DNA of 64,000 nucleotides, taken from the sequence record PX880102.1; one strand, given 5' to 3'. Below the pieces are notes generated by a model, which did not search any database, was not told the origin of the DNA, and was given only the letters and a program-made list of their open reading frames with translations. A program made the translations under genes and the position numbers. Position 1 is the stretch's first letter. Every line of letters starts with the position of its first letter. Positions 20,275 through 49,731 of the stretch are shown here, in pieces. Origin of the DNA: a phage.

Positions 20275-21030
20275 TTATCCTCGGATAAGTTTAAAAATTG
20301 AACAATTCAGCGGGTATCCTCTTTTCAGTTTAAGTTTATCAATAAAAGACAAGTTTTGATACCGCTCTACACCTTGAATAATTTTATCACACATATCATA
20401 TTGCATTTCTGCTTCTGACAACTTTTTCACAATTTTCCAATCCGAGCCTTTAAGAAGAACGTTCAATTTAACAACTTCAGCGCCTTCTGCTATGCGAGAA
20501 CCATCAATACGAGCTTTAAGTGCTATAATCGTTAGCTTAACGTCAGAAGTTTGTTTTGATTTAGAAAGCTGAGAAATGTGCTCAATTCGGTTTTCACGTT
20601 TTTTCTGTATAGCTTTAATTTGATTATAAGTCTTTTTGATTTTAGCCCATTTCTTTTCATCTAAATTTAATTTATGAACTTTTTTCGCAGATGAACGACC
20701 AATTCGCAAAGCAAATAAATCACGCTTTTCAATCAACTCTTCTAAAGTATAATCAGAACGAAATGTATTATACTTTTTCTTTACTGCAATAACGTTCCCT
20801 TTAATGTATCCAACGTTATTATCAAAACGTTCTAATGATAATTTCTCTCCTTCAATACGATTATCAAAAGGTTCTCCTGAATAGGCACAAACTTTTTGAT
20901 CTAAAATGTTCTTAATGTAATTGAAGTCTAAGTTAAAATCTTTAGAACGTCTTTTTGCAGATGCCTGAGTGTGCTCTAAACGACGTTTAATTTTACGAAT
21001 TTGATTATTAGACATATTATGCAGTTTCAT
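20275..21030 (-). CDS. srd: basic protein (251 aa), Srd-like by position and size
   Basis: position between dda.1 and modA; lysine-rich; sequence identity not verifiable from memory. Confidence 0.45.
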   Translation of the reverse strand: MKLHNMSNNQIRKIKRRLEHTQASAKRRSKDFNLDFNYIKNILDQKVCAYSGEPFDNRIEGEKLSLERFDNNVGYIKGNVIAVKKKYNTFRSDYTLEELIEKRDLFALRIGRSSAKKVHKLNLDEKKWAKIKKTYNQIKAIQKKRENRIEHISQLSKSKQTSDVKLTIIALKARIDGSRIAEGAEVVKLNVLLKGSDWKIVKKLSEAEMQYDMCDKIIQGVERYQNLSFIDKLKLKRGYPLNCSIFKLIRG

Positions 21031-21059
21031 ATTTTTCTCACATCTTACGGACGGTTGAC

Positions 21060-21115
21060 TACTATACTATAACATTTTTACCTTAGCTTGTAAACAACTT
21101 TATGCAAAAATGCTT
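21060..21115 (-). promoter_or_regulatory. T4-type early promoter upstream of the srd-like gene
   Basis: minus-strand GTTTAC aagctaaggtaaaaatg TTATAGTATAGT. Confidence 0.5.
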
Positions 21116-21152
21116 TAAAAATTTCATGGTATAATGAATCTAAGTCCTTCCA

Positions 21153-21755: not shown

Positions 21756-22375
21756 TCAACTACCTCAATATCATAAACTTTAAATGTTCCAAATGAATCG
21801 TGTAATTTTTCTTTTGAAATAGAAGTTATTCTATACTTTCCAATTGGAATCATCCATTCTTGTTCACGCACAATCATCATTAAGTTATCAGTACGCTCTG
21901 AATCTAACCCATCAGTATCTTCATATGTATACTTAAACTCAGTATTAGGAGAAGAAAGTATAATATCGCTGATATGGTCAGAGTAATTAAAAGCTTTATC
22001 AGTTTTTAAGCGAAGTATTGTTTCAGTGAAATATTCAGCATAAGAAAAAGAACACGCTGTATGCAAACTAGTAGTAAATGAATCTACCCTGTTCGTTGAA
22101 AACACTTCTCCAACTTGTAAATCTTTAATGAGTTCTTTTGTCGATTTTGATATACCACGATATAATTGATAAGGCGATTTAGTTAAATGCTTTTTAATGA
22201 TTTTATTCAACTGTCTGTGAAGAGCTTCATTCTTTTTGGCTTCCATACATTGCCAAAGAATTGACTGTTCAAAGTCAGTAAATTTTTCACAGACCTTTTT
22301 ATACATATCATATTGAAAATCAACGCTTTCGGCTTTTATAGATAACTGTTCAACATCTGCAAGATTAATAATCAT
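21752..22375 (-). CDS. modB: ADP-ribosyltransferase ModB, 207 aa
   Basis: QLYRGIS...FSTN...EQEWMIP signature; length and position as T4 ModB. Confidence 0.8.
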   Translation of the reverse strand: MIINLADVEQLSIKAESVDFQYDMYKKVCEKFTDFEQSILWQCMEAKKNEALHRQLNKIIKKHLTKSPYQLYRGISKSTKELIKDLQVGEVFSTNRVDSFTTSLHTACSFSYAEYFTETILRLKTDKAFNYSDHISDIILSSPNTEFKYTYEDTDGLDSERTDNLMMIVREQEWMIPIGKYRITSISKEKLHDSFGTFKVYDIEVVE

Positions 22376-22399
22376 GATAGCCTCCGTATACTTCAGAAG

Positions 22400-22455
22400 C
22401 TATCATATCATCGTTAGAAAGGAAAGTAAACAACTTTTTGAATTATTTTGCCCAG
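22400..22455 (-). promoter_or_regulatory. T4-type early promoter upstream of modB
   Basis: minus-strand GTTTAC (plus 22426-22431), TATGAT -10, SD GGAGG. Confidence 0.5.
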
Positions 22456-22625
22456 GGAGCCCAAGGCGGAGGGTCAAGATGGTATGAAGCTAGTTCTTCT
22501 AGAAGAGCATCTGGGGCTTCAATTCCATAATTCTGTAATACTATACGGTACTCTTTCTTATAATCACTAGAATCATTCTGGATATTCGTAGAATGATTAT
22601 CTTCTAACATCTCAAATAAATCCAT
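22443..22625 (-). CDS. hypothetical protein (60 aa)
   Basis: ORF. Confidence 0.4.
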   Translation of the reverse strand: MDLFEMLEDNHSTNIQNDSSDYKKEYRIVLQNYGIEAPDALLEELASYHLDPPPWAPWAK

Positions 22626-24271: not shown

Positions 24272-24477
24272 TACAAAAAGCCTCTTTTGAATTCGACTTG
24301 TTTATCGCCATAATCATATCGAATCTCTGCGTTAAATTCAACAGAACCATCTGCGTACATCATAAATGAATGCACAACAACTTCTGTAGACCATGGTTGC
24401 AATTCATATTTCTTCATTACATGCCGTGAAATGATAATATCTAAATCTTCATTTGGTTTAATCCAACGATTTAACAT
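24271..24477 (-). CDS. hypothetical protein (68 aa)
   Basis: ORF behind an early promoter. Confidence 0.5.
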   Translation of the reverse strand: MLNRWIKPNEDLDIIISRHVMKKYELQPWSTEVVVHSFMMYADGSVEFNAEIRYDYGDKQVEFKRGFL

Positions 24478-24499
24478 AGTGCTCTCCTCTATAAGATAA

Positions 24500-24555
24500 T
24501 TCTATTATACCATACTCATTTTGGAAAGTAAACCGGTAAAATGAAAAAAGGACTC
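24500..24555 (-). promoter_or_regulatory. T4-type early promoter
   Basis: minus-strand GTTTAC (plus 24528-24533), spacer, GGTATAATAGA with perfect TATAAT. Confidence 0.55.
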
Positions 24556-24570
24556 CCGAAGGAGTCCTTG
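24541..24570 (-). terminator. rho-independent terminator downstream of soc
   Basis: AAGGACTCC-uucg-GGAGTCCTT hairpin followed on the minus strand by TTTTTTCATTTT. Confidence 0.7.
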
Positions 24571-24843: not shown

Positions 24844-24851
24844 TATTTATA
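24844..24851 (-). promoter_or_regulatory. T4 late promoter TATAAATA upstream of soc
   Basis: plus-strand tatttata is TATAAATA on the minus strand, about 32 nt upstream of the soc ATG. Confidence 0.7.
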
Positions 24852-24993
24852 ACTTACAATTTAGCGGCTTTCCAGAGTTGTTCAATAATCTCTTGGTCTA
24901 TTTCTTTAGTTATTTCATTACGTAATAAAGCAGTAAGGGCTTTCGCCCTTTTCTTATTCAACTTTTTGAGTTGGCGTTTATTTAAACGGGACA
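24852..24993 (-). CDS. small lysine-rich ORF (about 46 aa) between 56 and soc
   Basis: MSRLNKRQLKKLNKKRAKALTALLRNEITKEIDQEIIEQLWKAAKL; coordinates approximate; overlaps the late promoter; coding status uncertain. Confidence 0.25.
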
Positions 24994-25512
24994 TTAATAA
25001 CCTCGGTCTTGACGTGCGAAATTTTCAGCATTTTTCAGATAATAAAGTTTAAAGATTTCTTCCGCTGTAAGACCAAGACCCTGGAACATATTCAGAACGA
25101 AATGAAGAATATCAATCATTTCAAATTTAATTTCTAACTGGTCTTGTGGAGACAAATCAGTAATCAGAGTTTCACGACGTTCACCATGCTGCGACTTCCA
25201 AGGTTTCCATACAGCAGATGCGTCTTTTTCACCATTACTCATACCACCAAGAGAAGTCAGAAGTTCACGGAATTCATCGTCAATATAATCTTTCTGATTA
25301 CGCAACCAATCAACAACTTCACCGGCAGTAGCTAAGTCATCAGGATGACGATTATATTCAGGTTTATCTTTAGCTAAACGAACCTGCAAAGATTTCTGCA
25401 TATCAAGCATTACCTGCAGCGGGTCTTTTTCATCGCCGAGAATATCCCAATATTCATTTTGAGCTTTATCAGCGCCTTCAATCAGTTGTGAACATTCGTT
25501 AAAGTAAGCCAT
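24994..25512 (-). CDS. 56: dCTP pyrophosphatase (MazG-like dCTPase/dUTPase), 172 aa
   Basis: MAYFNECSQLIEGADKAQNEYWDIL... MazG-type NTP pyrophosphohydrolase helices; ORF-track start trimmed to the ATG after SD AAAGGA. Confidence 0.85.
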   Translation of the reverse strand: MAYFNECSQLIEGADKAQNEYWDILGDEKDPLQVMLDMQKSLQVRLAKDKPEYNRHPDDLATAGEVVDWLRNQKDYIDDEFRELLTSLGGMSNGEKDASAVWKPWKSQHGERRETLITDLSPQDQLEIKFEMIDILHFVLNMFQGLGLTAEEIFKLYYLKNAENFARQDRGY

Positions 25513-25552
25513 TATTTTTCCTTTCAATTCATGGGTTAGTAGATTAATTATA

Positions 25553-25568
25553 CAATAAATATATAAAG
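25553..25568 (+). promoter_or_regulatory. late-promoter-like box (AATAAATA / TATATAAA) upstream of the plus-strand ORF
   Basis: cAATAAATAtataaa 22 nt upstream of the ATG at 25584. Confidence 0.3.
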
Positions 25569-25583
25569 CAATAAGGAGGACAT

Positions 25584-26811: not shown

Positions 26812-26976
26812 TTACTCTTCTTTTTCTTTAGATTCCTCTTTTTTCTTTTTAGGAATCTGTTCAGGACCTTTATTTACTACAGCACCTGATGTTGTTCCAG
26901 TAGAGATATTTTCAGGATTACCACCTGAATCTCCAGCAACCATATCTTCTTTAATAAATTCTTTATATGTTTTCAT
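26812..26976 (-). CDS. small acidic/lysine-rich ORF (54 aa)
   Basis: MKTYKEFIKEDMVAGDSGGNPENISTGTTSGAVVNKGPEQIPKKKKEESKEKEE; not in ORF track; low-complexity. Confidence 0.35.
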   Translation of the reverse strand: MKTYKEFIKEDMVAGDSGGNPENISTGTTSGAVVNKGPEQIPKKKKEESKEKEE

Positions 26977-26977
26977 A

Positions 26978-27334
26978 TTAACCTCTATTCATAAAAGCAT
27001 TAAAAATTTGGTCATCAATCGATGGAATAGCAACTTTTTCTGCATCATTTAGCAAATCATTAATTTCATCAGATAGCATAACACATGTACCTTTATTTCC
27101 TGTAATTGTTACTGCACAATTACGAACGTTTTCTTTATTAAATTTTAGGTTAATATTTTCGTAATGAAAATCCTTTAATGCTGAATATATTTTTAAAATA
27201 AAATTGTCTTTTACTACAATAAACCCAACCTCACTATTAAAACGTGGTTCATGGAAACTGTAATAAACCTTTTCATCTATAAAATCGTATGAAATTTTTT
27301 CCATTTTTAAATATGAAAATTCAGAACTATACAT
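26978..27334 (-). CDS. hypothetical protein (118 aa), VKDN-repeat family
   Basis: shares C-terminus IDDQIFNAFMNRG and a VKDN segment with the next gene. Confidence 0.55.
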   Translation of the reverse strand: MYSSEFSYLKMEKISYDFIDEKVYYSFHEPRFNSEVGFIVVKDNFILKIYSALKDFHYENINLKFNKENVRNCAVTITGNKGTCVMLSDEINDLLNDAEKVAIPSIDDQIFNAFMNRG

Positions 27335-27335
27335 A

Positions 27336-27977
27336 TTAACCTTTATTCATAAAAGCATTAAAAATTTGATCGTCAATAGAAACTTTTACTTTAGGATGTT
27401 CTTCAAACGGTAATTCATATCCACATATTACAATTTTGTGATCGATACCAAAATACACAGAAGCAATATGATTAATATTATTTTCAGTGAAATCTAAATC
27501 AACATCAATATCTTTTTGACTAACGCTCAAAGGATAATTAATACGAATAATTCGATTATCTTTAACAAAGATTCCACCGACATACTCTGTGTTGCGTTTA
27601 AAGTTTACACGTTTCCTAAATGAAAAATATTCAGGTTCTTTATGAGCCCGACTCATAGGACACAATGAGTAGCTAGAATAAGAGATGTCAAATCCTACAC
27701 CTTCAATATGAGCCAACGTGTCATGATTAAACCAATTATAATCATATGCCAAATCCATTATATTGTAATATGTGAAAGGCACCGGATTAACATCATATAT
27801 TGTACCTTTAAAATCTGCCCAGGCAACGATTTCATTATCTTTAACAATTACAAAAATTGTGCCAATAAGATATCCACGGTTATTTTCATCAGGCGTTATA
27901 TTATAACATTGCGCATCAGGAAATTTACCGTATTTAAACGGTGGATTTTTGTGCATATAATAAATCATATTATTCAC
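27336..27977 (-). CDS. hypothetical protein (213 aa) with two internal VKDN repeats
   Basis: IFVIVKDNEIVAW and GIFVKDNRIIRINY repeats; C-terminus IDDQIFNAFMNKG. Confidence 0.55.
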   Translation of the reverse strand: MNNMIYYMHKNPPFKYGKFPDAQCYNITPDENNRGYLIGTIFVIVKDNEIVAWADFKGTIYDVNPVPFTYYNIMDLAYDYNWFNHDTLAHIEGVGFDISYSSYSLCPMSRAHKEPEYFSFRKRVNFKRNTEYVGGIFVKDNRIIRINYPLSVSQKDIDVDLDFTENNINHIASVYFGIDHKIVICGYELPFEEHPKVKVSIDDQIFNAFMNKG

Positions 27978-28263
27978 CTGTGATTTCGGTTACGATATCT
28001 TTGTTATCAAAATTAGGGTCACAATACAAAACATAGTTATACTGCATCACACCACCTGATTTAAGCTGTTTTTGTACTTCAACTTTCATATTGGGACGAT
28101 CACGCTCAACGATATTCATAATATCCGCTTCAATTTGAGTTTCAACTTCAGTCTGATCTGCAGTCATAGACCATTCACACAAATCTTTATCATAACCTGC
28201 CATAGCAGGCTGAGCAGCACAAGAAGCTAAAGCAAAAATTGCAGCAAAGATAAATTTTTTCAT
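27970..28263 (-). CDS. secreted/periplasmic small protein (97 aa)
   Basis: signal peptide MKKFIFAAIFALASCAAQPAMA. Confidence 0.55.
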   Translation of the reverse strand: MKKFIFAAIFALASCAAQPAMAGYDKDLCEWSMTADQTEVETQIEADIMNIVERDRPNMKVEVQKQLKSGGVMQYNYVLYCDPNFDNKDIVTEITGE

Positions 28264-28289
28264 GATAATCTCCTCAGTAGTTTATGTTT

Positions 28290-28345
28290 ATATAGTATCT
28301 CAATTTCCAACAAAAGTAAACAGCTATTTTAAAACTTCTGCATAA
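28290..28345 (-). promoter_or_regulatory. T4-type early promoter
   Basis: minus-strand GTTTAC (plus 28316-28321), -10 TACTAT, SD GAGGAG. Confidence 0.5.
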
Positions 28346-28581
28346 TCACATGTTACAAACTGTTTCTCTAACTTGACGATTTTACGAAAATACCTTTTAC
28401 ACTGACGAATCTGTCGCTTCGTAGGACGTACAGCAAACTTAATAAATTCCACTCGACCAAATGGAGGACTTTCTTCTGCTGGAATATCTAGCACCAATTC
28501 CCACGTATCTGCAATAAGTGCTTTGAATTGCGTATTTTTCCTGACGTTATACGGAGTAGGTTTAAATAAAACAATATGCAT
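28324..28581 (-). CDS. hypothetical protein (85 aa)
   Basis: ORF-track start trimmed to the ATG after SD GAGGATAAT, adjacent to the dmd stop. Confidence 0.5.
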   Translation of the reverse strand: MHIVLFKPTPYNVRKNTQFKALIADTWELVLDIPAEESPPFGRVEFIKFAVRPTKRQIRQCKRYFRKIVKLEKQFVTCDYAEVLK

Positions 28582-28582
28582 A

Positions 28583-28765
28583 TTATCCTCGGCAATCCAC
28601 TTCGCACACTTTCTTGTCATCAATGAAAGCTTCAACTAATGCTTTATTAACTTCAGCATATTGAGTAGTAGCCCATTGAACGTCATCTTTCATCATTGTG
28701 GTTTCTTTAGTAAACATGCTTTCATTCTTAAACCACCCCATAAAAACTACCTTTACCAATTCCAT
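28583..28765 (-). CDS. dmd: Dmd (discriminator of mRNA degradation; antitoxin against RnlA/LsoA), 60 aa
   Basis: MELVKVVFMGWFKNESMFTKE.TMMKDDVQWATTQYAEVNKALV.AFIDDKKVCEVDCRG near-identical to remembered T4 Dmd (gene 61.5). Confidence 0.9.
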   Translation of the reverse strand: MELVKVVFMGWFKNESMFTKETTMMKDDVQWATTQYAEVNKALVEAFIDDKKVCEVDCRG

Positions 28766-28789
28766 AACAATCTCCTCATTTAACCAACA

Positions 28790-28845
28790 AGACTACTATA
28801 CCATAGTCTTGTCAGCTTGTAAACTAAAATTTTAATTCATTTGCC
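28790..28845 (-). promoter_or_regulatory. T4-type early promoter upstream of dmd
   Basis: minus-strand GTTTAC (plus 28818-28823), -10 TATAGT. Confidence 0.5.
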
Positions 28846-30251
28846 AAAGCATCTAACTGAGCTCGAGCTGATTCGTTTCTTTGATAGCGATTCTGTTCAG
28901 CCTGAATCTGCTGTGAACCTGCTACTTCACTCACTTCGGTTGGAGTAGAATCTTGTTCAATTTCTACCCATTTTTGATTTCCTTTTTGAACACCCATCAA
29001 AAACTTATTCCACTTATTCTTATCACCATATCGTGATTTGATTTGCTTAATGAGTTGTTGTTCAGCAGCTGCTAGCTCCTCGGTTTCAATGACCGCAAGC
29101 ATAAAATCAGCTGTTGCTGGAAGACCAGCAGATTCTGCAATATCGCTCATGTTAACATCGGAAGAGTCCCAAGCTTGTTTACCGACCTGTGCTGCAGTCC
29201 AAAGAACAGTTTCTGTTTCAACAGCCAGAGCACGTAATTCCTCTGCAATAGCTTTAACAGTTGTGTAACTATTTTCTGAATAAACTCTAATGCGGCAAGA
29301 TTTACAAATACCTAGATAGTCGACAATAATGATTGTTGGAACAAAATTCTTTTTGAGCTTCAATTCATTCAAGAGAGACCTGAATGTGTTAGCGTCTGCT
29401 CCACCAGTAGGATATTGCTTAACGATTAAACGACCGAGAGTAGATTTCTCACGCCATTTTTCCATTTTTCCTTTATACTCGGCATAAGAAATATGTCCAT
29501 CATCAATATCGTCAAGAGAAACATCGAGCATGTTAGCATCAATACGTTTAGCACAGACTTCTTCTGCCATTTCCATGGAGATATAAAGAACGTTATGACC
29601 AAGCTGCAAATAATCTGCTGCTAATGAACAAAGTCCTAATGATTTACCAACGTTAACGCCAGCCATTAAAACGTTCAGTGTTCCAGTCTCAGCTCCGCCT
29701 TTAGTAATTTTGTTTAGAATTCTGAGTTTAAATGGAACCTTACGAGCTTTATTCATATAAGATAGCCAACGCGCTTCATAGTCATCCATCCAATCATGAC
29801 CAACGTAGCTATCAAATGAAATTGATAATGCTTGGCGCATGATGTCAGGAATAGCACCTACATCTGGCATTTTCTTATTTCGTTTTTCCGGAGGAAGCTC
29901 AGCATTAGTTTGAATTTCGATTATTTTAGACGTAGCATTAAACATCGCCCTTTGCTGAACATATTTTTCTGTTTCTTTTACTAACCAGCTGTGGTCTTCT
30001 GGAGAATCAGTCAGTTTTGAAATAAGTGTTTTTACACCAGAATATTCTGTTTCAGTAAATGAACTATTTTCTAATGCAACATTTAACGCATTAATAGATG
30101 GAACGCTATGATACTCGTTGACATGAGATTTAATTAATTTGAATGTATTTTTAGCTGGACCACTTTCAAAATATTCTGAATCCATATATGGCCAAACTTT
30201 TGAAAAATAAGCTTGATCAAATATAAGATGAGAAAGAATAATTTCTACCAC
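28824..30251 (-). CDS. 41: replicative DNA helicase (DnaB-like), 475 aa
   Basis: Walker A GVNVGKS, DnaB-family motifs; same length as T4 gp41. Confidence 0.95.
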   Translation of the reverse strand: MVEIILSHLIFDQAYFSKVWPYMDSEYFESGPAKNTFKLIKSHVNEYHSVPSINALNVALENSSFTETEYSGVKTLISKLTDSPEDHSWLVKETEKYVQQRAMFNATSKIIEIQTNAELPPEKRNKKMPDVGAIPDIMRQALSISFDSYVGHDWMDDYEARWLSYMNKARKVPFKLRILNKITKGGAETGTLNVLMAGVNVGKSLGLCSLAADYLQLGHNVLYISMEMAEEVCAKRIDANMLDVSLDDIDDGHISYAEYKGKMEKWREKSTLGRLIVKQYPTGGADANTFRSLLNELKLKKNFVPTIIIVDYLGICKSCRIRVYSENSYTTVKAIAEELRALAVETETVLWTAAQVGKQAWDSSDVNMSDIAESAGLPATADFMLAVIETEELAAAEQQLIKQIKSRYGDKNKWNKFLMGVQKGNQKWVEIEQDSTPTEVSEVAGSQQIQAEQNRYQRNESARAQLDALANELKF

Positions 30252-30599: not shown

Positions 30600-31773
30600 T
30601 AAATTCTTCCATATCACTTAACTGCTCGAGGTCAGTTTCTAAATCAGCTGCTGATTTACTTTTACTTTCTGGGGATTTAAATTTTTCAACCTTTGAGTTA
30701 ATCAATTCATCAACTTCAGCTTCAACAATTTCATTACTATCAATAGCACCTAACTGATAAGCACGTTTAATAGCATCTCGGAATGGTTGATGCTTAAATA
30801 AAGGACCCCAGAATGTAGTGCAGTTAGTATCTTTTGCACGCCAAGATTTTTCTTCGCGAATCATCTCACCGGTTTCTTCGTCAAGAAATTCACGAGCATA
30901 CCAACCATTTTTAGGTTTTACTACAAATCCTAATTCTAGGGCCATATCTAACAATCCAGAATAAGGATCGATACCACCGTCAAATTTAACATCAATAAAG
31001 AATTTACTTTTTTCTTTAACAGTACGAGATTTTTCTACATTTAGAACAAATTGATACCCCTGAAGATCAGAACCATCTTTAATCTGACGCTTACCGATAA
31101 TGAATACAGTATCAGCCGAATACATTACGCCTGTACCACCTGTCATCACGGTTTTACTAAACATTTCAATTGTTTCAATTGTATGGTTAACCGCAACGCA
31201 TGGAATATTTTTAATGCTAAAGTAAGGAGTAACAATACGGAATAATGACTTCAGCGATTTAGCACGAGTCATATCTGCCACAGATTTTTCATTCAAGGCA
31301 TCTTCCGTTTCTTTCTTAGAAGCCATATTACCGATTGAGTCGATGAATACAATAACTTTTTCACCACGCTCAATAGCTTCAAGCTGGTTCACCATATCAA
31401 TTTTCAGCTGTTCAACTGACTGGATTGGCGTATGAATTACTCGTTCCGGGTCAACTCCCATGGATCGCAAATAAGCTGGAGTAATACCAAATTCGCTATC
31501 ATAGAATAGACAAACCGCGTCAGGATATTTGTTCAAATATGCCGCAACCATAGTCAAAGACATATTTGATTTAAAGTGTTTAGAAGGCCCTGCGAAAATA
31601 GTTAAACCAGACTGCATACCGCCATCAATCGCACCAGAAATAGCAATATTAAGCATTGGGATTTTTGTACGGATTACATCCTTTTCATTAAAGAATTTAG
31701 ATGTAGTCAGTTCAGCAGTCATTTTAGAAGTGGAAGCTTTAATCAAACGGGATTTTAAATCTGCAATAGACAT
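30592..31773 (-). CDS. uvsX: UvsX recombinase (RecA-like), 393 aa
   Basis: MSIADLKSRLIKASTSK.TAELT.SKFFNEKDV.RTKIPM.NIA.SG... near-identical to T4 UvsX. Confidence 0.96.
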   Translation of the reverse strand: MSIADLKSRLIKASTSKMTAELTTSKFFNEKDVIRTKIPMLNIAISGAIDGGMQSGLTIFAGPSKHFKSNMSLTMVAAYLNKYPDAVCLFYDSEFGITPAYLRSMGVDPERVIHTPIQSVEQLKIDMVNQLEAIERGEKVIVFIDSIGNMASKKETEDALNEKSVADMTRAKSLKSLFRIVTPYFSIKNIPCVAVNHTIETIEMFSKTVMTGGTGVMYSADTVFIIGKRQIKDGSDLQGYQFVLNVEKSRTVKEKSKFFIDVKFDGGIDPYSGLLDMALELGFVVKPKNGWYAREFLDEETGEMIREEKSWRAKDTNCTTFWGPLFKHQPFRDAIKRAYQLGAIDSNEIVEAEVDELINSKVEKFKSPESKSKSAADLETDLEQLSDMEEFNE

Positions 31774-31825
31774 TCATTTTTTCCATAGGCATCATTATAT
31801 TTTCCTCACTGGTTAAAGATAGAGT

Positions 31826-31851
31826 AATTATAACACAATAAATTTAGGCAT
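31826..31851 (-). promoter_or_regulatory. candidate MotA-dependent middle promoter upstream of uvsX
   Basis: minus-strand aaTGCCTAA (MotA-box-like, one mismatch to TGCTTNA), 12 nt, TATAAT. Confidence 0.35.
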
Positions 31852-32693
31852 TAATCAACTGCTATTGGATGAATAGCATTAAACTTATGAAATGCTTCTG
31901 ATTTTTCTTTACGCGAAACGCACATGCGAAGAACCTTTAGTGGTTCATCTTCTTCACCCAACGATTTTCGTTTTTCAATATTAGAAGTTTTCCAACGAGC
32001 TTGCTCTGGAAACTCTCTATTGATTTGTTCAAGCGCTCTATTATGTTTAGAATTACTACGAATTGAACTACATCCGCCAGGAGCTTGTGCTTTTCCAGAT
32101 ACAACTAGATATTTGAACAAGGCCAAATGCGGATAACCTTGATTAATTAAATTGAGAAATGCATACATATCTTCGCATAAATCAATTTTTCCATACCCAA
32201 TTTGTTCTGTCGTAAGTTTTCCGAGGTCATACCATGTATTCGTGAATCCATATGAATTTTCACGATAATTACCCCAAGATGAAGTAATTTTAAAAATTGG
32301 TAGACGAGCATGGCCATGATAATACCCGCAATCCATGGCATCTTCAACGTATTGAATTAATTCATAGAACTGTTCACGAGTTAATTGATTAACTTTATCT
32401 ACGCAGCGACGATCATCTCTCTTTCGCATTGAACTCATACGAATAGTAGTATCATCGTCAATCATCCAGATTCGTTGACCTGCATACATATCAGTAATTG
32501 CTTTACGAGTTCCAGCAATTCCGTTTACATCATCAGGAATAGTTATAATTTTAGCTCTAGACCCATAGGCATCATAATAAGCTTTTTCTTCATGCTCACG
32601 CACTACAATATGTGGTTCATAATCAGTCGGAAACATATCAAGGGCAGAAACTGCCCCGACACGCTGATAGCTTGGAATTACGAATTGAATCAT
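31851..32693 (-). CDS. DNA glycosyltransferase candidate (GT-A-like, DxD), 280 aa, at the beta-gt locus
   Basis: position between uvsX and 42 where T4 has beta-glucosyltransferase; WMIDDDTTIR DxD-type motif; start trimmed from the GTG of the ORF track to the ATG. Confidence 0.5.
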   Translation of the reverse strand: MIQFVIPSYQRVGAVSALDMFPTDYEPHIVVREHEEKAYYDAYGSRAKIITIPDDVNGIAGTRKAITDMYAGQRIWMIDDDTTIRMSSMRKRDDRRCVDKVNQLTREQFYELIQYVEDAMDCGYYHGHARLPIFKITSSWGNYRENSYGFTNTWYDLGKLTTEQIGYGKIDLCEDMYAFLNLINQGYPHLALFKYLVVSGKAQAPGGCSSIRSNSKHNRALEQINREFPEQARWKTSNIEKRKSLGEEDEPLKVLRMCVSRKEKSEAFHKFNAIHPIAVD

Positions 32694-33430
32694 TTCCACT
32701 CACCGTTATAATCTTTTTTCACAATATGAGTTTCGCCAGTATTCCACCAATGATCAACCAAGTAAAAATGACGAGAATATACATGAAGACTTCCAACATT
32801 CCATATAATAGAACCTGCTTTATACTGACGAGTTGAATCGCCTGCATTCAAATCAGATACTAATTTATCTAATACGTATTTTTGCCATGCATAATCATTA
32901 CGGAATCCGAAGACCACGTCATTTGAGCGCATGCTTACTACTGCATTGACTTTCTTATCACGAATCAGGTATTGTACTGTATTCGTGCACATGAAATCTG
33001 ACATGCCGTCTTTGCTGTAGTCAAACTGCATAGATGGACGAGTATAAATCATGATACCACGTCGAGAATCAGGATTTTGACCAAGTTCAGCTAAACACAT
33101 ATCATACTGAGCATAGTTATCTTCTGACCAGATAGCCCAACCATAATTCGAGTTAATTTCGCCTTTAGAAGATGCTACCTGCTGCCAAATCTTTGGTGTT
33201 TCACCTGGAATATCTTTGACAAACAGACTTTGAGACTTGTACCATTCAAGTTCACGCTGAATGTATTCATCATTAAGAGCGCCAAAAATAAACGGTTCAT
33301 CTGCTACAAATGATGCGCCAATAATTTCAATAGTTTTAACGCCGGTTTTATCAACTACGAAATCTTTTTCCTTTAATGCAAGCCCCAAATGAAGACGGAT
33401 TTCTTCAACTGTCATAGAGTCACTAATCAT
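32690..33430 (-). CDS. 42: dCMP hydroxymethylase, 246 aa
   Basis: thymidylate-synthase-like fold; same length as T4 gp42. Confidence 0.93.
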   Translation of the reverse strand: MISDSMTVEEIRLHLGLALKEKDFVVDKTGVKTIEIIGASFVADEPFIFGALNDEYIQRELEWYKSQSLFVKDIPGETPKIWQQVASSKGEINSNYGWAIWSEDNYAQYDMCLAELGQNPDSRRGIMIYTRPSMQFDYSKDGMSDFMCTNTVQYLIRDKKVNAVVSMRSNDVVFGFRNDYAWQKYVLDKLVSDLNAGDSTRQYKAGSIIWNVGSLHVYSRHFYLVDHWWNTGETHIVKKDYNGEWK

Positions 33431-34233: not shown

Positions 34234-34470
34234 TCAAATACAAGTAGTAATTACTCCAGTGGTGCTTACACAGGTATTACCTAATTGAACACCCAGCGTT
34301 CCATTAGTATTCATATGAAGATTATCATCAATTTTTGTTGATACTTTACCATTCATGTGAATAACAGTATTAGATTCAATCACATTCTGAGTATCATTTT
34401 CAATATCAATAAATGAAACAGCTGCTAATGCAACTAAACACACTGCTAAGCAACCATAAACAATTTTCAT
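34234..34470 (-). CDS. secreted small protein (78 aa)
   Basis: signal peptide; ORF-track start (TTG) trimmed to the ATG after the conserved leader. Confidence 0.5.
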   Translation of the reverse strand: MKIVYGCLAVCLVALAAVSFIDIENDTQNVIESNTVIHMNGKVSTKIDDNLHMNTNGTLGVQLGNTCVSTTGVITTCI

Positions 34471-34509
34471 TTTATTCTCCAAATCCGTATCAGTTGATAG
34501 TTGTATAGT

Positions 34510-34570
34510 ACCACAGAGGAACAGTCTTGTAAACAGTTTTGTGAAAAATTTTTTAGGGAATTCTAAAGGT
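34510..34570 (-). promoter_or_regulatory. T4-type early promoter cassette
   Basis: minus-strand GTTTAC (plus 34538-34543), -10 TACTATAC, leader near-identical to the cassette at 60921-61000. Confidence 0.55.
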
Positions 34571-37426: not shown

Positions 37427-37648
37427 TTAAATTAATACCACTTGTCGGTGAAAAATTGTCAATCCATCTGCATTAATTGACTTAACCACTGCTGTAAAGT
37501 GTTTTTGTTCTGGGTGAACTAATTTTTGAAATTCTACCTGAAATTTTAGTTGGAGGTTTTCCGGTAAATCAAAAAGTGTTTCTGTTGCAGAAAGATTATA
37601 TTTTTCTTTAAGAGACGCCATGTATTCTTGCGAGGTTATAGCAGTCAT
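37427..37648 (-). CDS. hypothetical protein (73 aa)
   Basis: start taken as the ATG immediately after the regA stop. Confidence 0.45.
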   Translation of the reverse strand: MTAITSQEYMASLKEKYNLSATETLFDLPENLQLKFQVEFQKLVHPEQKHFTAVVKSINADGLTIFHRQVVLI

Positions 37649-37649
37649 A

Positions 37650-38018
37650 TTAATTACCAATCGTATATTTGGGAACGAGTTTCCATTCGTGTTTTTGTTT
37701 AAAAGAAATAACTCGGAAGTTATTAGTTAAATCTTTCATAAAAGTTCTTTGACCAGGAACGATTTCAATCAATCCCCAATCTTCTAATAGCCATGCAATC
37801 GAATCACGACGAACTTCATCTTCTTCTGTCATTTCAACCTGGCGACCATCCATACGAAGCATTTCTTTAAAATGAACGATATAGTATAGTCCTTTTTTCT
37901 GAAGAATGTGGCAGGACTGATACAGAACTTTATCTTTATTATTAGCAATTCCCATACGAGTCAAAGTTTCTTTTACTTTCAGAAAATCTTCAGGTTTTTT
38001 AAGAGTAATTTCAATCAT
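37650..38018 (-). CDS. regA: translational repressor RegA, 122 aa
   Basis: MIEITLKKPEDFLKVKETLTRMGIANNKDKVLYQSCHILQKKGLYYIVHFKEM... matches T4 RegA. Confidence 0.92.
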   Translation of the reverse strand: MIEITLKKPEDFLKVKETLTRMGIANNKDKVLYQSCHILQKKGLYYIVHFKEMLRMDGRQVEMTEEDEVRRDSIAWLLEDWGLIEIVPGQRTFMKDLTNNFRVISFKQKHEWKLVPKYTIGN

Positions 38019-40734: not shown

Positions 40735-40923
40735 TTAGTCATAATAATCAGTAACAGTCCAAGCTTCATTTCTGTTGGACATTATTTTCGTATATTCTGC
40801 TTTAAATGCATTCTTAAGCATAGATTCAGTAACTATATGCTCTTCATTAGAAAAATTATTTCTCAGAATATATCGTTTTATTTCAGGAATAGTTAATAGA
40901 TGCTGTCCAGTTGAATATTCCAT
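40735..40923 (-). CDS. hypothetical protein (62 aa), 45.2-like
   Basis: ORF. Confidence 0.5.
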   Translation of the reverse strand: MEYSTGQHLLTIPEIKRYILRNNFSNEEHIVTESMLKNAFKAEYTKIMSNRNEAWTVTDYYD

Positions 40924-40978
40924 GTTTTTCCTCCATAGAGATTATACTCTAATAAATTAAAGCATAATCTCTTATAAA

Positions 40979-44302: not shown

Positions 44303-45503
44303 ATTTTGTAATAATGTCAAACTGTTCTTTAAAGCAGAAGCTTGAATCTTGATGCTGATACAAAAATTCATATGCTTTTTCTCGCTCACGGTCATAAAGA
44401 GCTCGGTCAGATGACAGTTCTTTAATACGTTCAAATGTTGATTCCATGTCATTTTCATCAAACCAAATGATACCGCTATCATGCGAGGTCAAAGGAGTAT
44501 TATCAACACGGAATTTTAAATTTTCGCCAGTAGATTTCCAAAATACCGGAATTGTTCCACATGCACCAAGCTCGAGATGAGTATATTCTAAAGAGCGCTG
44601 TAGATATTTTTTATCCAACTTACTCAGCTGATAACCAAAACCGGATTTACTCATACGTTCAAGCATTTCGCTATTTACATAACGGTCAAGAATTTGCGTT
44701 GGCAAATTAGGAGCAATTTTAATTTGGTCTACTTGATGAAGACGATAATACTCGTATGGAATTCCTTTTTCATTAATAGGAATGAACGCTGGAGAACGTT
44801 CCAGACCTTCCATAATAGTACTTAGCCCAACAGGTTTAAGATGTTTTTCGTGAAAATCAAACATCTGATAAAAACCTTTCCATGTAGTCGTACGACCAAT
44901 CCAACGGTTGACATTCATGTTAATTTCAGAAACATCTTTCCAGTAGGTTGATCGAACCTTCGCAATATCCATAGGAGGCTGAAAGTTGTATACAGTCGGT
45001 GCTTCTTCAATATCATCAAACAGAGAAACTGTTTCTGGATACCATTCTTTCATCAGAACTTTATTAAAATCGCCATTATCAGAATGACTAAAAATAACAT
45101 CAGCTCGACGAACAGTTTCTTCTAATCCCAAATTTCGGCGCAAAGAAAGAGAAGAATGGTCATGTTGATAAACTACAACACGAACCGAAGGTTTAATGTT
45201 ATCAATAATTTTTTTATAGTTATTAATAGTGTCTTCTTCAACTGAAGTAGCAGGAACTGAATTGATAATTAGAATATCACAATCATTTACCAGCTTAAGT
45301 GTTTTATCGTATTCTTTTGCCAATAAAACCGGAATTGAAAATGATTTATAATCATGCGCACAGTTACGAGTAAATGATTTATCTTTAGCATAAACCAAAG
45401 TTACTTCATGACCATTTTTAATAAACCAATCACGTTGCTCAAGAGAAAATTTAGTTACACCACAACCTTCAAGACCTCGAGCCATAAAAATACATACTTT
45501 CAT
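44301..45503 (-). CDS. agt: DNA alpha-glucosyltransferase, 400 aa
   Basis: M.ICIFMARGLEGCGVTKFSLEQRDWFIKNGHEVTLVYAKDKSF... near-identical to T4 alpha-gt. Confidence 0.95.
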   Translation of the reverse strand: MKVCIFMARGLEGCGVTKFSLEQRDWFIKNGHEVTLVYAKDKSFTRNCAHDYKSFSIPVLLAKEYDKTLKLVNDCDILIINSVPATSVEEDTINNYKKIIDNIKPSVRVVVYQHDHSSLSLRRNLGLEETVRRADVIFSHSDNGDFNKVLMKEWYPETVSLFDDIEEAPTVYNFQPPMDIAKVRSTYWKDVSEINMNVNRWIGRTTTWKGFYQMFDFHEKHLKPVGLSTIMEGLERSPAFIPINEKGIPYEYYRLHQVDQIKIAPNLPTQILDRYVNSEMLERMSKSGFGYQLSKLDKKYLQRSLEYTHLELGACGTIPVFWKSTGENLKFRVDNTPLTSHDSGIIWFDENDMESTFERIKELSSDRALYDREREKAYEFLYQHQDSSFCFKEQFDIITK

Positions 45504-45552
45504 TTAATATCCTCATTGTTTTGGTTTATTTTACCAAAAATTTATAAAGCAA

Positions 45553-46997: not shown

Positions 46998-47075
46998 TTT
47001 CACCTCTTAGCTCAATTCATAGATCTATTATATCATAATATTTGAAGATCTATCTTAAAGCATAGAGGATATCAG

Positions 47076-47345
47076 TTATCTAAGTAAGCAGTATGCTTGG
47101 AACACTTTCTCCATCATCTTTTTAAATTCATGAATATCTATATAATGACTAGTTAAATCAGCATGATATAAAAAGTCTAAAAACTTTTCATGTGTGCTAA
47201 CATATTCACTTTCATTTAATTCAGAAACATGACTTTCCCAATATCCAACACCAGTCTTATTTGGGAAAAATGAAATTTTCATGTATTGGTCAACATAGAA
47301 AATGCCATAATTTTCAATAGTAATAGAAATATTAATAAATTTCAT
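47076..47345 (-). CDS. hypothetical protein (89 aa)
   Basis: ORF. Confidence 0.5.
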   Translation of the reverse strand: MKFINISITIENYGIFYVDQYMKISFFPNKTGVGYWESHVSELNESEYVSTHEKFLDFLYHADLTSHYIDIHEFKKMMEKVFQAYCLLR

Positions 47346-48140: not shown

Positions 48141-48272
48141 TTAAATTTTCCAGTTACCATTTTCATCAATAAATTTAATCCAGTCATTTACTGACCACTT
48201 AGTCGTATCGCCTTTTGGAGCAACATTTAAAGTGTATAATCCTTGTTTAAAAAGCATGCGTTTGATATTCAT
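48141..48272 (-). CDS. hypothetical protein (43 aa)
   Basis: ORF-track ORF trimmed to the ATG after SD GAGGAAAAT. Confidence 0.4.
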   Translation of the reverse strand: MNIKRMLFKQGLYTLNVAPKGDTTKWSVNDWIKFIDENGNWKI

Positions 48273-48279
48273 ATTTTCC

Positions 48280-48573
48280 TCAGCTATAACGATAACACTC
48301 GTTTGATTTACGCTTAGCAACTCGTTGAGAAGTATTGTAATCAAAATCATCGTCAATGTAAACTGATTTTTTCAACTTTCTTACTTCACCGCGTAATTGA
48401 CGATTTAACTCATCTTTAACTTCTGAATCAATGCCTTTCATTCTACGCCATTTATCTGAGCGAAAAATGTTTTCAACCATATCTTTATGACTTACACCAT
48501 CAGGAGCTTTACGCTTTCCAAAATAGTCATAATCACGCACTTTTAAGTCTTTACGACGATACGTTTTACCCAT
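48280..48573 (-). CDS. basic protein (97 aa)
   Basis: trimmed to MGKTYRRKD after SD AAGGAAA. Confidence 0.45.
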   Translation of the reverse strand: MGKTYRRKDLKVRDYDYFGKRKAPDGVSHKDMVENIFRSDKWRRMKGIDSEVKDELNRQLRGEVRKLKKSVYIDDDFDYNTSQRVAKRKSNECYRYS

Positions 48574-48748
48574 GGAGTTTAATTTCCTTAGCAACTGAAC
48601 TAAATACAGCACGATCACAAATCATCTGTTTATGTAACTTGAGTATAAGATAATAAACTTCAAAACCGTTTACATAAGTAACACGAACAACATTACCATT
48701 AATGAGATAATACTGTCCCTTTTTAATTTCTTTATCAACCACAACCAT
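48566..48748 (-). CDS. hypothetical protein (60 aa)
   Basis: ORF behind an early promoter. Confidence 0.5.
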   Translation of the reverse strand: MVVVDKEIKKGQYYLINGNVVRVTYVNGFEVYYLILKLHKQMICDRAVFSSVAKEIKLHG

Positions 48749-48779
48749 ATCAATTCCTCAAAGGCAATTCATGTGTTAA

Positions 48780-48835
48780 TAATACCACAGTTTGAGCTCG
48801 TTGTAAACAACTTTGTGAAAATTATTTTAGGGAAT
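48780..48835 (-). promoter_or_regulatory. T4-type early promoter
   Basis: minus-strand GTTTAC (plus 48803-48808), -10 TATTAT. Confidence 0.5.
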
Positions 48836-48906
48836 GATAAGAAGGGAACGATAGCTTAGAATGGTAATATACAGAATGTAAGAAAGAAAGGCCCAGAGGG
48901 CCCGTC

Positions 48907-49230
48907 TTAGTCTTCTATGATATCTCTATCATATCCAAGTGAAATGAGAGTTTCTTTGAATTGTTTAATGTTCTTTTGTCTAGAATCATTAATGAAAATG
49001 ACAGGATACCGAATATTAAGAGATGTGAATCCGGCGCGTTTGGCAAGAGATACAATCAATGGGCGATCGTACTCAATCTTACCATTATTAGTAAGAACTT
49101 TATAGAAAGTAAAAGGAGCATTGAGCTCCTTTAGAAGTTTTGTAACTGATTGACATCCAGGACAACGACCTACTTCATCTGGAATTCCATAGACTTCAAT
49201 CTTATTCTTTAAGTTCGAGTTTTGTTCCAC
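48907..49230 (-). CDS. nrdH: glutaredoxin-like protein (CPGC), NrdH-like; start uncertain (GTG proposed)
   Basis: ...KIEVYGIPDEVGRCPGCQSVTKLLKELN... thioredoxin-fold signature; no in-frame ATG near the N-terminus; SD AAGGAA 9 nt before a GTG. Confidence 0.5.
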   Translation of the reverse strand: MEQNSNLKNKIEVYGIPDEVGRCPGCQSVTKLLKELNAPFTFYKVLTNNGKIEYDRPLIVSLAKRAGFTSLNIRYPVIFINDSRQKNIKQFKETLISLGYDRDIIED

Positions 49231-49513
49231 GAGAAATAATTCCTTGATAAGCCCAGTATGGCGGGTTAACAGAATCCTCACCAGAGTTTTCTTCAGGAAA
49301 ATAAACCTGGATAACGAAGCCGGATTCATCAAAGGTGAAATAAGTAGTAGGCAATTCACCTAACAAATCGGCACGAGCATTAATTTCTTCGAGGTCTTGT
49401 TCACGTCCAGCCCAGAAGCTTGGGTTCAGACTACATTCATAGAAATAATAGTCATTACCGAACATATCAAAACCATTCCAACTCTCTACTACATACCGCT
49501 CAAAACTAATCAT
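49202..49513 (-). CDS. hypothetical protein (103 aa)
   Basis: ORF; overlaps the proposed nrdH start. Confidence 0.5.
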   Translation of the reverse strand: MISFERYVVESWNGFDMFGNDYYFYECSLNPSFWAGREQDLEEINARADLLGELPTTYFTFDESGFVIQVYFPEENSGEDSVNPPYWAYQGIISRGTKLELKE

Positions 49514-49515
49514 AA

Positions 49516-49731
49516 TTAAGCCTTTTTATCAAGAACAGCATTCAGCTTGTTAGTAATTTTATCCAGACGCTCATTGAACTCACTAGAAGATAAGCCCTTT
49601 TCTGGAGAAATTAAACTAATAACGAAAAATACAACAATAAAAGGAATAAGGAAAATAGCTCCAACTGCCATAAACAGAAAGAATGTTACAGTTGTAAGAA
49701 AATCAGCTAAACCTTTACGAAATTTATACAT
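49516..49731 (-). CDS. small membrane protein (71 aa)
   Basis: one or two TM segments. Confidence 0.5.
   Translation of the reverse strand: MYKFRKGLADFLTTVTFFLFMAVGAIFLIPFIVVFFVISLISPEKGLSSSEFNERLDKITNKLNAVLDKKA

Follow-up and report, generated by a model that had tools for sequence, protein, structure and literature searches.

Repeated early promoters of a T4-type phage, their leaders and the hairpins that span some of them

What are the elements that recur upstream of genes throughout a 64,000-nucleotide stretch of phage DNA (sequence record PX880102.1; hereafter the window, meaning this whole stretch), and what accounts for the leader that several of them share? An earlier note on this DNA, written around the copy at 34481–34560, had counted at least 18 such elements, read them as early-promoter cassettes and pointed to a proposal that such cassettes in T4-type phages are substrates for modular gene shuffling. 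We conclude that the repeats are very probably sigma-70-dependent early promoters of a T4-type phage, a joint reading that takes in their leaders, recombination between copies and a layer of RNA hairpins. As first described, the finding combines textbook T4 early promoters with a published idea of shuffling and is already known. The part that merits specialist attention is a conserved, sense-strand hairpin that spans about one third of the promoters and is present in T4.

The window is the early (prereplicative) region of a Tequatrovirus, at about 95–97% identity to T4 relatives and with essentially all genes on the minus strand. A 10-kb piece of it matches 976 phage records. Of these, 495 align across most of the piece at about 95–98% identity, all T4-type coliphages (Tequatrovirus). 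The window is collinear with T4 positions 160197–168903 and then 1–58000, running from asiA/motA through rIIB/rIIA, 39, motB, dda, modA/B, 41, uvsX, 43, 45, 46/47, 55 and nrdD up to the nrdC/mobD cluster. About 21 indels or replacements separate it from T4.

Early promoters on the minus strand and their leaders

The pattern GTTTAC-N15–19-TAnnnT matches the window 23 times, compared to 4.5 ± 2.1 times in dinucleotide-preserving shuffles. At the dominant spacing, GTTTAC-N18-TAnnnT, the minus strand has 20 sites and the plus strand has none. We built a 72-nt position weight matrix (PWM) from these sites, as the earlier note had proposed. At a cut-off of 10 bits, it found 21–22 minus-strand sites, no plus-strand site and 0.23 sites per shuffled window, and leave-one-out scores mostly remained high. 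The count of at least 18 copies upstream of minus-strand genes thereby rises to 21 strong matches, and a copy is present at every one of the ten coordinates that had been listed. Per-copy counts refer to these 21 cassettes, all on the minus strand and designated as in Table 1.

The core GTTTAC-N18-TAnnnT is exact in 20 of the 21 copies, the remaining one (15527) having ATATAC as its −35 element, and an extended −10 element (TGn) occurs in 17. The 30 nt upstream of the −35 element are 57–87% A+T in 20 copies (65% in the window overall), and the consensus of this UP tract is aaaaa.tttcA.aaAgT. Each site lies 25–61 nt 5′ of a Shine–Dalgarno sequence (SD) and ATG that open an open reading frame (ORF), and the conserved positions of the PWM coincide with the contact elements of RNA polymerase. 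The inverted repeat ACCAC...GTGG, which was said to be frequent in the spacer, is found in only three copies (7328, 11822 and 56573), and its GTGG or ATGG half is the TGn of the extended −10 element.

The early promoters of T4 have GTTTAC at −36 to −31, an A-rich UP-like tract, a GT-rich or TGn stretch 5′ of the −10 element, and TAnnnT (PMC2988021, PMC1524935). This UP/−35/TGn/−10 type out-competes host promoters (Hinton 2010, PMC2988021), and Nolan et al. 2006 (PMC1524935) located the same motif before early genes and novel ORFs of RB69 and further relatives. The window copies resemble the T4 promoters in motif, in their position just 5′ of early genes and in their predicted use by the unmodified host sigma-70 polymerase. 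There is no essential difference between the two sets; the window phage belongs to the same genus, copies are orthologous to T4 sites (before motA, dmd, motB, modB and others), and a few copies precede ORFs lost from T4. The downstream genes were named by collinearity with T4, and three further copies precede ORFs that are absent from T4 or truncated there. Sites are kept upstream of orthologous genes in T4, RB69 and JS98. The promoter of dmd-tifA is cited among the mapped early promoters of T4 (PMC9391042); the T4 GenBank record, in which we looked for promoter features, has none annotated. On consensus, on uniform orientation and spacing and on orthology, the earlier identification as early promoters is well supported.

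According to this reading, host RNA polymerase would use the repeats in the first minutes of infection, and each promoter would drive a short leader with an SD and a start codon at its end. The similarity among all 21 copies would stem from polymerase contacts, namely the UP tract, GTTTAC, TGn and the −10 hexamer. In a subfamily of 7–8 copies, true homology over about 75–95 nt would extend through the initial transcribed region into the leader.

This long-leader family consists of 3682, 6822, 7328, 15527, 34534, 59544 and 60984, and partly of 28321 and 48808. Its homology runs from the UP tract AAAATTTTTTCACAAAAC through TACTATACAACTATCAACT to either leader A (acggaggaacagaaaATG) or leader B (gatacggatttggagaataaaATG). 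Clustering gave one group of eight copies, two pairs (28824/63759 and 11822/56573) and otherwise singletons, and once the polymerase-contact positions are excluded, the identity among the remaining promoters is at background (0.31 vs. 0.28 expected). The idea that all copies align as one family with a conserved leader is thus borne out for the long leader (ctatcaact...) of 7–8 copies, but not for the others. The near-identity of 34481–34560 and 60921–61000, put at about 45 bp, is an exact run of 50 nt (TGGTAC...ATGAAAA), with 88% identity over 94 nt. The N-termini MENKMK and STTEEQKMK, suspected of being spurious, are indeed the leader read in frame (TTG GAG AAT AAA ATG AAA and TCA ACT ACG GAG GAA CAG AAA ATG AAA, respectively). 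Spacers and leaders occur in all four combinations: spacer S1 with leader A (6822, 59544) or leader B (34534), and another spacer with leader A (7328) or leader B (60984). In T4-like contigs, at least nine different genes have the long-leader cassette in front of them.

The leaders also resemble known mRNA cleavage sites. In T4, the target of the RegB endonuclease with S1 consists of GGAG/U within the SD and an A-rich heptamer after it (PMC1702504, PMC3014915), with GGAGAAUAAAA as the published optimum (Durand et al. 2006, PMC1702504). The SD is GGAG in 14 of the 21 leaders and GGAU in two. Leader B (GGAGAATAAAA(tg)) is identical to the T4 optimum and matches the consensus GGAGRAYARAA at 11 of 11 positions. 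At least 10 of 11 positions match in six leaders, with 11 in 15527, 34534 and 60984 and 10 in 3682, 17222 (GGAU) and 63759; leader A (GGAGGAACAGAAA) is weaker, at 9 of 11. Folding energies of leaders that begin at the proximal promoter range from 0 to −2.5 kcal/mol. The motA, motB.2, nrdC.8 and modB sites of T4 were among those tested for RegB, and the motB.2, nrdC.8 and modB leaders are reported to be cut in vivo, that of nrdC.8 moderately (PMC1702504); cleavage was measured there, whereas the window leaders were compared by sequence only. We therefore attribute the conservation of the leaders to their being both ribosome-binding site and RegB/S1 target. RegB/S1 would inactivate early mRNAs at these leaders, and promoter, translation start and mRNA-inactivation signal would travel as a single unit.

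Hairpins that span some of the promoters

We folded each cassette from its −35 element to the ATG, as in a transcript arriving from upstream. Hairpins formed in eight of the 21 (6822, 15527, 16114, 17222, 22431, 28824, 59544 and 63759), with folding free energies (ΔG) of −18 to −24 kcal/mol and z < −3.6, stems of 11–19 bp and the −10 element in or beside the loop. The RNA from their own predicted start sites folds at about 0 kcal/mol and, with +1 taken as 7 nt after the −10 element, the 5′ arm is predicted to lie upstream of the start in all eight. All four SD nucleotides are paired in 6822, 17222, 22431 and 59544 (ΔG −18 to −24 kcal/mol), and the hairpins of 15527, 16114, 28824 and 63759 end short of the SD. 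The anti-SD sequence is part of the promoter spacer in three of these copies, with CTGTTCCTCTGTGG opposite ACGGAGGAACAG in 6822 and 59544 and TTCCTCGG opposite CTGAGGA in 17222.

Several controls characterize this complementarity. The duplexes between spacer and leader are stronger than those formed by shuffled spacers in seven copies (p ≤ 0.002), and a promoter's own spacer pairs better than the spacers of other promoters (permutation p < 0.0002 overall and 0.005 outside the long-leader family). When we applied a fixed geometry that is blind to promoter position, 20% of promoter genes reached z < −3, compared to 2% of 85 other genes (Fisher p = 0.012), and one of the two exceptions among the latter resembles a MotA-box middle promoter inside a hairpin. 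At 40860–40935 (minus strand), upstream of the ATG at 40923 of the 45.2 homologue, the hairpin AGAGATTAT/ATAATCTCT surrounds a middle-promoter-like arrangement (MotA box atGCTTTA, 11 nt, TATAAT) and stops immediately short of the SD; with a duplex ΔG of −20 and z −6.8, it is the strongest match in the control set outside the early promoters. Scoring both strands of all 21 cassettes alike, without preselection, gave z < −3 for eight sense and two antisense folds, none of them antisense-only, and most hairpins contain 2–4 G–U pairs. Hairpins occur in none of the five copies that have an upstream terminator, compared to eight of the 16 that lack one (p = 0.063). In all eight cases, the stop codon of the upstream ORF lies −1 to 24 nt from the −35 element, and the four SD-occluding hairpins begin 13–35 nt after it. 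A scan of the window at Rfam gathering thresholds matched no family.

The hairpins are conserved beyond the window. T4 itself has this architecture at 7 of 19 sites, and it is also present in RB69 and JS98. At motB.2, the occlusion is kept by four lineages with different sequences: the pairing segments are TTCCTCGG/CTGAGGA in the T4 type, TTCTCCTCATG/CATGAGGAGAA in the JS98 type and TTCTCCTCTGG/CCAGAGGAGAA in RB69, and in two homologues at 34% identity it is the −10/discriminator region that pairs with SD and AUG. Because the T4-type helix is shifted in register by three columns, no single structure string describes all cassettes; pairs were counted in the JS98-type and RB69-type rows. There, 11 of 11 pairs form in every sequence, both variable pairs are changed on both sides, and slid registers are 42–70% paired. 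The modB hairpin is kept in the T4 type, RB69, JS98 and homologues at 35–36% identity, with compensatory changes (AGCTTC/GGAGGCT vs. GACCTT/GGAGGTC). The motB hairpin, GGACCA/TGGTCC in the window, is AGAGCCAT/ATGGCTCT at the same place in JS98. In a distant T4-like contig, IMGVR_UViG_3300045988_154884, the motB.2 and modB homologues (L034, about 50–112; L113, about 190–256) have nearly the same segment from −10 to ATG, TATGAT-g(g/a)ccttcacttac...ggaggtcatcATGctt; this paralogous cassette includes the occluding hairpin.

The pairing also bears on the exchanged leaders. Spacers of the variant ...GTTCTTCCATGG show no covariation with leader B, since the duplexes that they form with it are at background level (z −0.1 to −0.9), and leader A is still their better partner. 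These spacers resemble decaying remnants left by an exchange of leaders. The copy at the center of the earlier note, 34534, joins the anti-SD spacer of leader A to leader B and has therefore lost the hairpin (z 0.8).

A function can be proposed for these structures. In the eight promoters, all without an upstream terminator, the spacer or the −10/discriminator region is complementary to the leader. A transcript from an upstream early or middle promoter would carry both arms and would close the ribosome-binding site; at motB.2, modB, nrdC.8 and the 37-amino-acid (aa) ORF, the hairpin would bury the SD, and at modB also the AUG. A transcript from the embedded promoter would have the 3′ arm only and would be open to ribosomes and RegB. 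Translation and RegB access would then be limited to promoter-proximal, immediate-early mRNA. We tentatively suggest, as a possibility rather than an expectation, a read-through gate in which the untranscribed spacer or −10/discriminator serves as the anti-SD, so that a gene would be translatable and open to RegB only from its own promoter. This gate would be conserved, through compensatory changes, across Tequatrovirus, Mosigvirus, Dhakavirus and more distant T4-like phages, carried on recombining cassettes. The genes concerned would be motB.2, modB, nrdC.8 and small ndd-region ORFs, and the arrangement may be an early mirror of late-only gating.

Such late gating is known from T4 genes e, soc, 49 and I-TevI, where a helix occludes the SD or AUG and its 5′ arm lies upstream of the proximal late promoter (PMC3014915). 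Both arrangements close long transcripts and leave proximal transcripts open, an effect that is predicted for the window. In the T4 genes, the embedded promoter is late (gp55, TATAAATA) and the effect is 'late only'; the window hairpins enclose an early sigma-70 promoter, which itself supplies the 5′ arm through its spacer or −10/discriminator, and 'immediate-early only' expression is predicted. Because the embedded promoters are sigma-70 early promoters and not gp55 late promoters, the hairpins would be a variant of the e/soc/49/I-TevI type and not a member. We found no description of hairpins spanning early promoters in PMC2988021, PMC3014915, PMC1524935, PMC2839356, PMC4122927 or PMC6070864 or by full-text searching, a scope that excludes Liebig & Rueger 1989, Miller et al. 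2003 and Mosig et al. 1998.

Signs of recombination at the cassettes and competing explanations

The earlier note had likened the repeats to promoter-early stem-loops (PeSLs), which consist of a terminator stem-loop just upstream of an early promoter (PMC2839356, PMC4122927). Their shuffling was published for RB49/phi1 (Arbiol et al. 2010, PMC2839356) and extended to T4/PST (Comeau et al. 2014, PMC4122927), where the consensus is TTTACW-N17-TAYWAT (PMC4122927). The likeness lies in an early promoter with SD and ATG, repeated as a unit of about 70–100 bp between small non-essential ORFs. For PeSLs, recombination between copies is described, with crossovers mapped between the −10 element and the ATG, and the T4/PST pair is explicitly covered. 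The upstream terminator, however, defines the class, and the stem-loops in the window span the promoter itself, a feature absent from both descriptions (PMC2839356, PMC4122927). An upstream terminator is found in five of the 21 copies (3682, 24533, 34534, 48808 and 60984), compared to 3% of random 110-nt windows; it is missing from the other 16, and 13 promoters abut the upstream stop codon. Promoter, SD and ATG do recur as one unit, with conservation beyond the core only in the 7–8 long-leader copies. The PeSL label therefore suits that unit but not the terminator, and the stem-loop that had been noted in the spacer is a different feature, present in three copies.

The idea of modular shuffling can be judged from the differences between the window and T4; in three of 21, a long-leader cassette contains a boundary. 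Two of the three are extra ORFs, at imm.1 and ndd.6, that have the shared leader and ATGAAAAT as their boundary; the third, at cef/motB, is no more than an internal deletion of the ORF in T4. Under a uniform null, boundaries are significantly enriched at cassettes of the long-leader family (p = 0.012); under an intergenic-only null, they are not (p = 0.50). The indel junctions are 8-nt microhomologies, and T4 recombines experimentally at microhomologies of 6–10 bp (PMC9391042). The 78-aa ORF of the imm.1 locus occurs in 326 phage records and the 87-aa ORF of 7328 in 618, each at the same locus. Movement of the extra small ORFs between loci was thus ruled out, there being one syntenic place per genome, and T4 is the derived state that lost them. 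Long homologous copies would serve as substrates for the homology-driven recombination of the phage, which would have made the chimeric cassettes and a few ORF gains and losses at the junction of leader and ATGAAAAT. Shuffling at cassettes is plausible and in part visible, in the chimeras and leader-junction indels, without being the main source of the difference between the window and T4.

Could the cassettes nevertheless be conserved primarily as mobile PeSL units, excising and inserting ORFs (for example as mini-circles) between neighboring copies? The publications on RB49/phi1 and T4/PST (PMC2839356, PMC4122927) speak for this, as do the direct-repeat pairs 6822/7328 (506 bp apart) and 59544/60984 (1440 bp apart), the chimeric cassettes, the three ORF indels next to long-leader copies and the occurrence of the cassette before at least nine different genes. 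We nevertheless consider it rather unlikely: the defining terminator is confined to five copies, nothing beyond polymerase contacts is common to 13 copies, 18 of the 21 differences from T4 lie elsewhere (seven of them homing-endonuclease or intron insertions), the intergenic null leaves no enrichment, the indel ORFs sit at one syntenic locus in 326 and 618 genomes, and the junctions are 8-nt microhomologies instead of cassette-to-cassette crossovers. That the repeats are no promoters at all, being a non-functional dispersed repeat or a by-product of A/T composition, is a negligible prospect. Short A/T-rich hexamers are indeed common in a genome of 65% A+T, but composition accounts for 0.23 sites in shuffles and not for 21–22, every site is on the coding strand at a fixed distance to start codons, the conserved positions match polymerase contact elements, and the sites are conserved before orthologous genes in T4, RB69 and JS98. 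It is also highly improbable, if slightly less so, that the inverted repeats act on DNA, as dimeric repressor sites in early shut-off or as cruciforms cut by endonuclease VII. The repeats are centered on the −10 element, and how early promoters are shut off is described as unexplained (PMC3014915, PMC2988021); however, the arm sequences differ at every promoter and thus provide no common operator, the stability is strand-asymmetric (eight sense vs. two antisense, G–U pairs being C–A mismatches on the other strand), and the complementarity tracks the SD sequence across lineages. The readings as DNA palindrome, repressor site or RNase III substrate were set aside, the arms being different, the G–U pairs strand-specific and the stems short.

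A further alternative accepts the hairpins as real RNA structures that do not silence, and instead couple translation to the upstream ORF or stabilize 3′ ends or processing signals after a RegB or RNase E cut. A terminating ribosome covers roughly 9–10 nt, and three of the four SD-free hairpins start 6–10 nt after the stop codon, within its reach. The proximity of an upstream stop to the −35 element in all eight copies, the free SD in 63759, 28824, 16114 and 15527 and the RegB-type SDs just downstream of hairpins also fit this explanation. The four SD-occluding helices start 13–35 nt past the stop, beyond the cover of the terminating ribosome, which favors occlusion over translational coupling; moreover, a U-run follows none of the hairpins, and stems of 11–19 bp are short for RNase III. 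For the hairpins as a whole, we regard non-silencing roles as rather unlikely. The four SD-free hairpins do need another role, which may be coupling, 3′-end protection or processing.

Other points weigh against the joint reading of promoter, leader, recombination and hairpin. The start sites in the window phage are predicted only, with an assumed +1 position, and two of the sites, 48363 and 53198, are weak ones without TGn that may be inactive. The hairpin is the property of a subset, since 13 of the 21 promoters are without one, and occlusion cannot be the mechanism of the four of eight hairpins that exclude the SD. The covariation comes from few independent lineages, with two compensatory pairs in one helix and register shifts elsewhere, and the enrichment of indel boundaries at cassettes vanishes under the intergenic-only null. 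The T4 modB RNA is reported to form a stable structure in vitro, and Durand et al. explain the in vivo RegB cuts by cleavage of nascent RNA (PMC1702504). The in vivo cleavage of modB and motB.2 fits proximal transcripts and also nascent-RNA cleavage before folding (PMC1702504).

The cassettes, other features of the window and implications

Table 1. The 21 early-promoter cassettes of the window. ΔG is given in kcal/mol; hairpins were sought by folding from −35 to ATG.
Feature	Interval	Strand	Downstream gene	Remarks
Early promoter + leader	1154–1247	−	asiA homologue (ATG 1156)	GTTTAC-N18-TATTAT, TGa; PWM 40.7 bits; ATG 31 nt after −10; T4 orthologue −35 at 161211; singleton outside consensus positions
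Early promoter + long leader (3682)	3609–3712	−	motA (ATG 3611)	PWM 57.2 bits; long-leader family; terminator-like AGGGAGAGC-cgag-GCTCTCCCT + T-run, ending 29 nt before −35; SD GGAGATTAGAA, 10/11 to RegB consensus; no promoter-spanning hairpin (z 0.2)
Early promoter, leader A (6822)	6762–6852	−	37-aa ORF, ndd region	SD-occluding hairpin: 5′ arm 6812–6798 CTGTTCCTCTGTGGT (spacer) with 3′ arm 6782–6768 ACTACGGAGGAACAG (SD); ΔG −23.2, z −5.6; own-start RNA unstructured; T4 orthologue z −4.8
Early promoter, leader A (7328)	7268–7358	−	87-aa ORF absent from T4	PWM 61 bits; spacer inverted repeat TACCAC-aaggacc-GTGGTA; in T4, spacer identical and followed by leader B, joined at ATGAAAATCGCT to ORF 3′ end; ORF has leader A in window, leader B in other phages
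Early promoter (11822)	11765–11852	−	rIIA.1 homologue	Spacer inverted repeat TACCACA-agga-TGTGGTA; core 97% identical to 56573 core (family D9)
Cassette with degenerate −35 ATATAC (15527)	15452–15557	−	89-aa ORF internally deleted in T4	13-bp inverted repeat ATCAGTAGTTGAT/ATCAACTACTGAT around −10; arms 15521–15503 and 15497–15479; ΔG −20.2, z −4.9; RegB site GGAGAATAAAA, 11/11
Early promoter (16114)	16038–16144	−	motB	Hairpin enclosing −10, SD outside; arms 16106–16095 and 16084–16072; ΔG −22.1, z −3.6; T4 z −3.4
Early promoter (17222)	17163–17252	−	motB.2	SD-occluding hairpin: spacer TCCTCGGTTAGTTGTGGT (17215–17198) with ACCATAGCTACTGAGGA (17189–17173); ΔG −23.7, z −5.7
Early promoter	21028–21125	−	srd homologue	PWM 38 bits; ATG 35 nt after −10; no hairpin (z 1.2)
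Early promoter (22431)	22373–22461	−	modB	Hairpin of −10/discriminator with SD + AUG: TATGATAGCTTCTG with CGGAGGCTATCATG; 14 bp, ΔG −18.0, z −3.7; SD + AUG buried
Early promoter (24533)	24475–24563	−	mrh.2 homologue	PWM 33 bits; upstream terminator CAAGGACTCC-ttcg-GGAGTCCTTT + T-run, ending 13 nt before −35
Early promoter (28321)	28261–28351	−	sp (spackle) homologue	PWM 38 bits; no hairpin (z 1.4), whereas JS98 and RB69 sp promoters have one
Early promoter (28824)	28763–28854	−	dmd	Hairpin enclosing −10; arms 28817–28805 and 28794–28782; ΔG −18.9, z −4.3; paralogous to 63759, with compensatory differences
Early promoter, leader B (34534), focal copy	34468–34564	−	78-aa ORF absent from T4, then imm.1	Chimeric: spacer identical to 6822/59544, leader identical to 60984; terminator AGGGACC-tccg-GGTCCCT 87 nt upstream; RegB GGAGAATAAAA, 11/11; junction with T4 at ATGAAAAT
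Weaker promoter-like site (48363), inside upstream open frame	48270–48393	−	55.4 homologue	PWM 24.8 bits; GTTTAC-N18-TACAAT, no TGn, 61-nt leader; least certain member
Early promoter (48808)	48746–48838	−	55.6 homologue	PWM 49 bits; UP tract like long-leader family; terminator GGCCC-tct-GGGCC + T-run 81 nt upstream
Promoter-like site (53198)	53126–53228	−	pin homologue	GTTTAC-N18-TATAAT; PWM 21.5 bits; no TGn; G+C-rich upstream; adjoins 49.2/49.3 replacement
Early promoter (56573)	56513–56603	−	nrdC.4 homologue	Spacer inverted repeat CCACA-agga-TGTGG
Early promoter, leader A (59544)	59484–59574	−	nrdC.8	SD-occluding hairpin: CTGTTCCTCTGTGGT with ACTACGGAGGAACA; ΔG −20.8, z −5.4; T4 z −4.9; 4/4 SD nucleotides pair with nucleotides upstream of predicted start
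Early promoter, leader B (60984)	60918–61014	−	nrdC.10	PWM 57.8 bits; RegB 11/11; terminator ATAGGGAGCC-ttcg-GGCTCCCTTT + T-run, ending 27 nt before −35; no hairpin
Early promoter (63759)	63699–63789	−	mobD.2 homologue (34 aa)	Hairpin enclosing −10; arms 63752–63740 and 63729–63717; ΔG −19.0, z −4.9; T4 z −5.5

Seven of the approximately 21 differences between the window and T4 are homing-endonuclease or intron insertions in T4. Compared to T4, the window is without mobA/60.1, segF, dam, segA, mobB, mobC, the nrdD intron with I-TevII, and mobD; the corresponding sites of loss or replacement are 11822–13642, 24851–24994, 25552–25573, 31761–32708, 45494–45519, 50297–50317, 51593–51596 and 62049–63012. 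Genes 39 and 60 form a single 606-aa ORF in the window, which therefore does without translational bypass. The position of b-gt in T4 holds a 282-aa ORF that is annotated in relatives as beta-glucosyl-HMC-alpha-glucosyltransferase. At 53252–53636, an unrelated 129-aa ORF stands in place of T4 49.2/49.3, with the boundary of the replacement 54 nt upstream of the pin promoter; the same exchange in phage PST was ascribed to non-PeSL recombination by Comeau et al. 2014 (PMC4122927). Neither boundary has an early-promoter cassette in another six small insertions of ORF size compared to T4 (7916–8112, 13971–14347, 18416–18646, 37430–37650, 47070–47331 and 49206–49531). Consequently, most differences in gene content between the window and T4 arise independently of cassettes.

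Two other kinds of repeat occur in the window. A tandem duplication at 26974–27380, with a period of 358 bp, has 49-nt ends (26974–27022 and 27332–27380) that are 92% identical, and it yields an additional 118-aa ORF (26978–27334) beside the 61.1/61.2 homologues. Near-identical intrinsic terminators on the minus strand, AAGGGC-UUCG-GCCCUU with a UUCG tetraloop and then a U-run, are located at about 8175, 8404, 13685, 37400, 39568, 44278 and 47918. They contain the motif GGGC...GCCC, which Arbiol et al. tied to deletion end points mapped by Mosig (PMC2839356).

For annotation, recognizing the leaders corrects start codons and removes spurious N-terminal extensions. The conserved leader itself gains a functional explanation, as a ribosome-binding site fused to an optimal RegB/S1 site. 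If the hairpins do block translation from read-through transcripts, they would amount to a cis-encoded confinement of toxic host-takeover proteins to the first minutes of infection, with ModB and MotB, the latter reported to be highly toxic, as candidates. Such a gate might also account for the contrast between the resistance of modB RNA to RegB in vitro and its cleavage in vivo.

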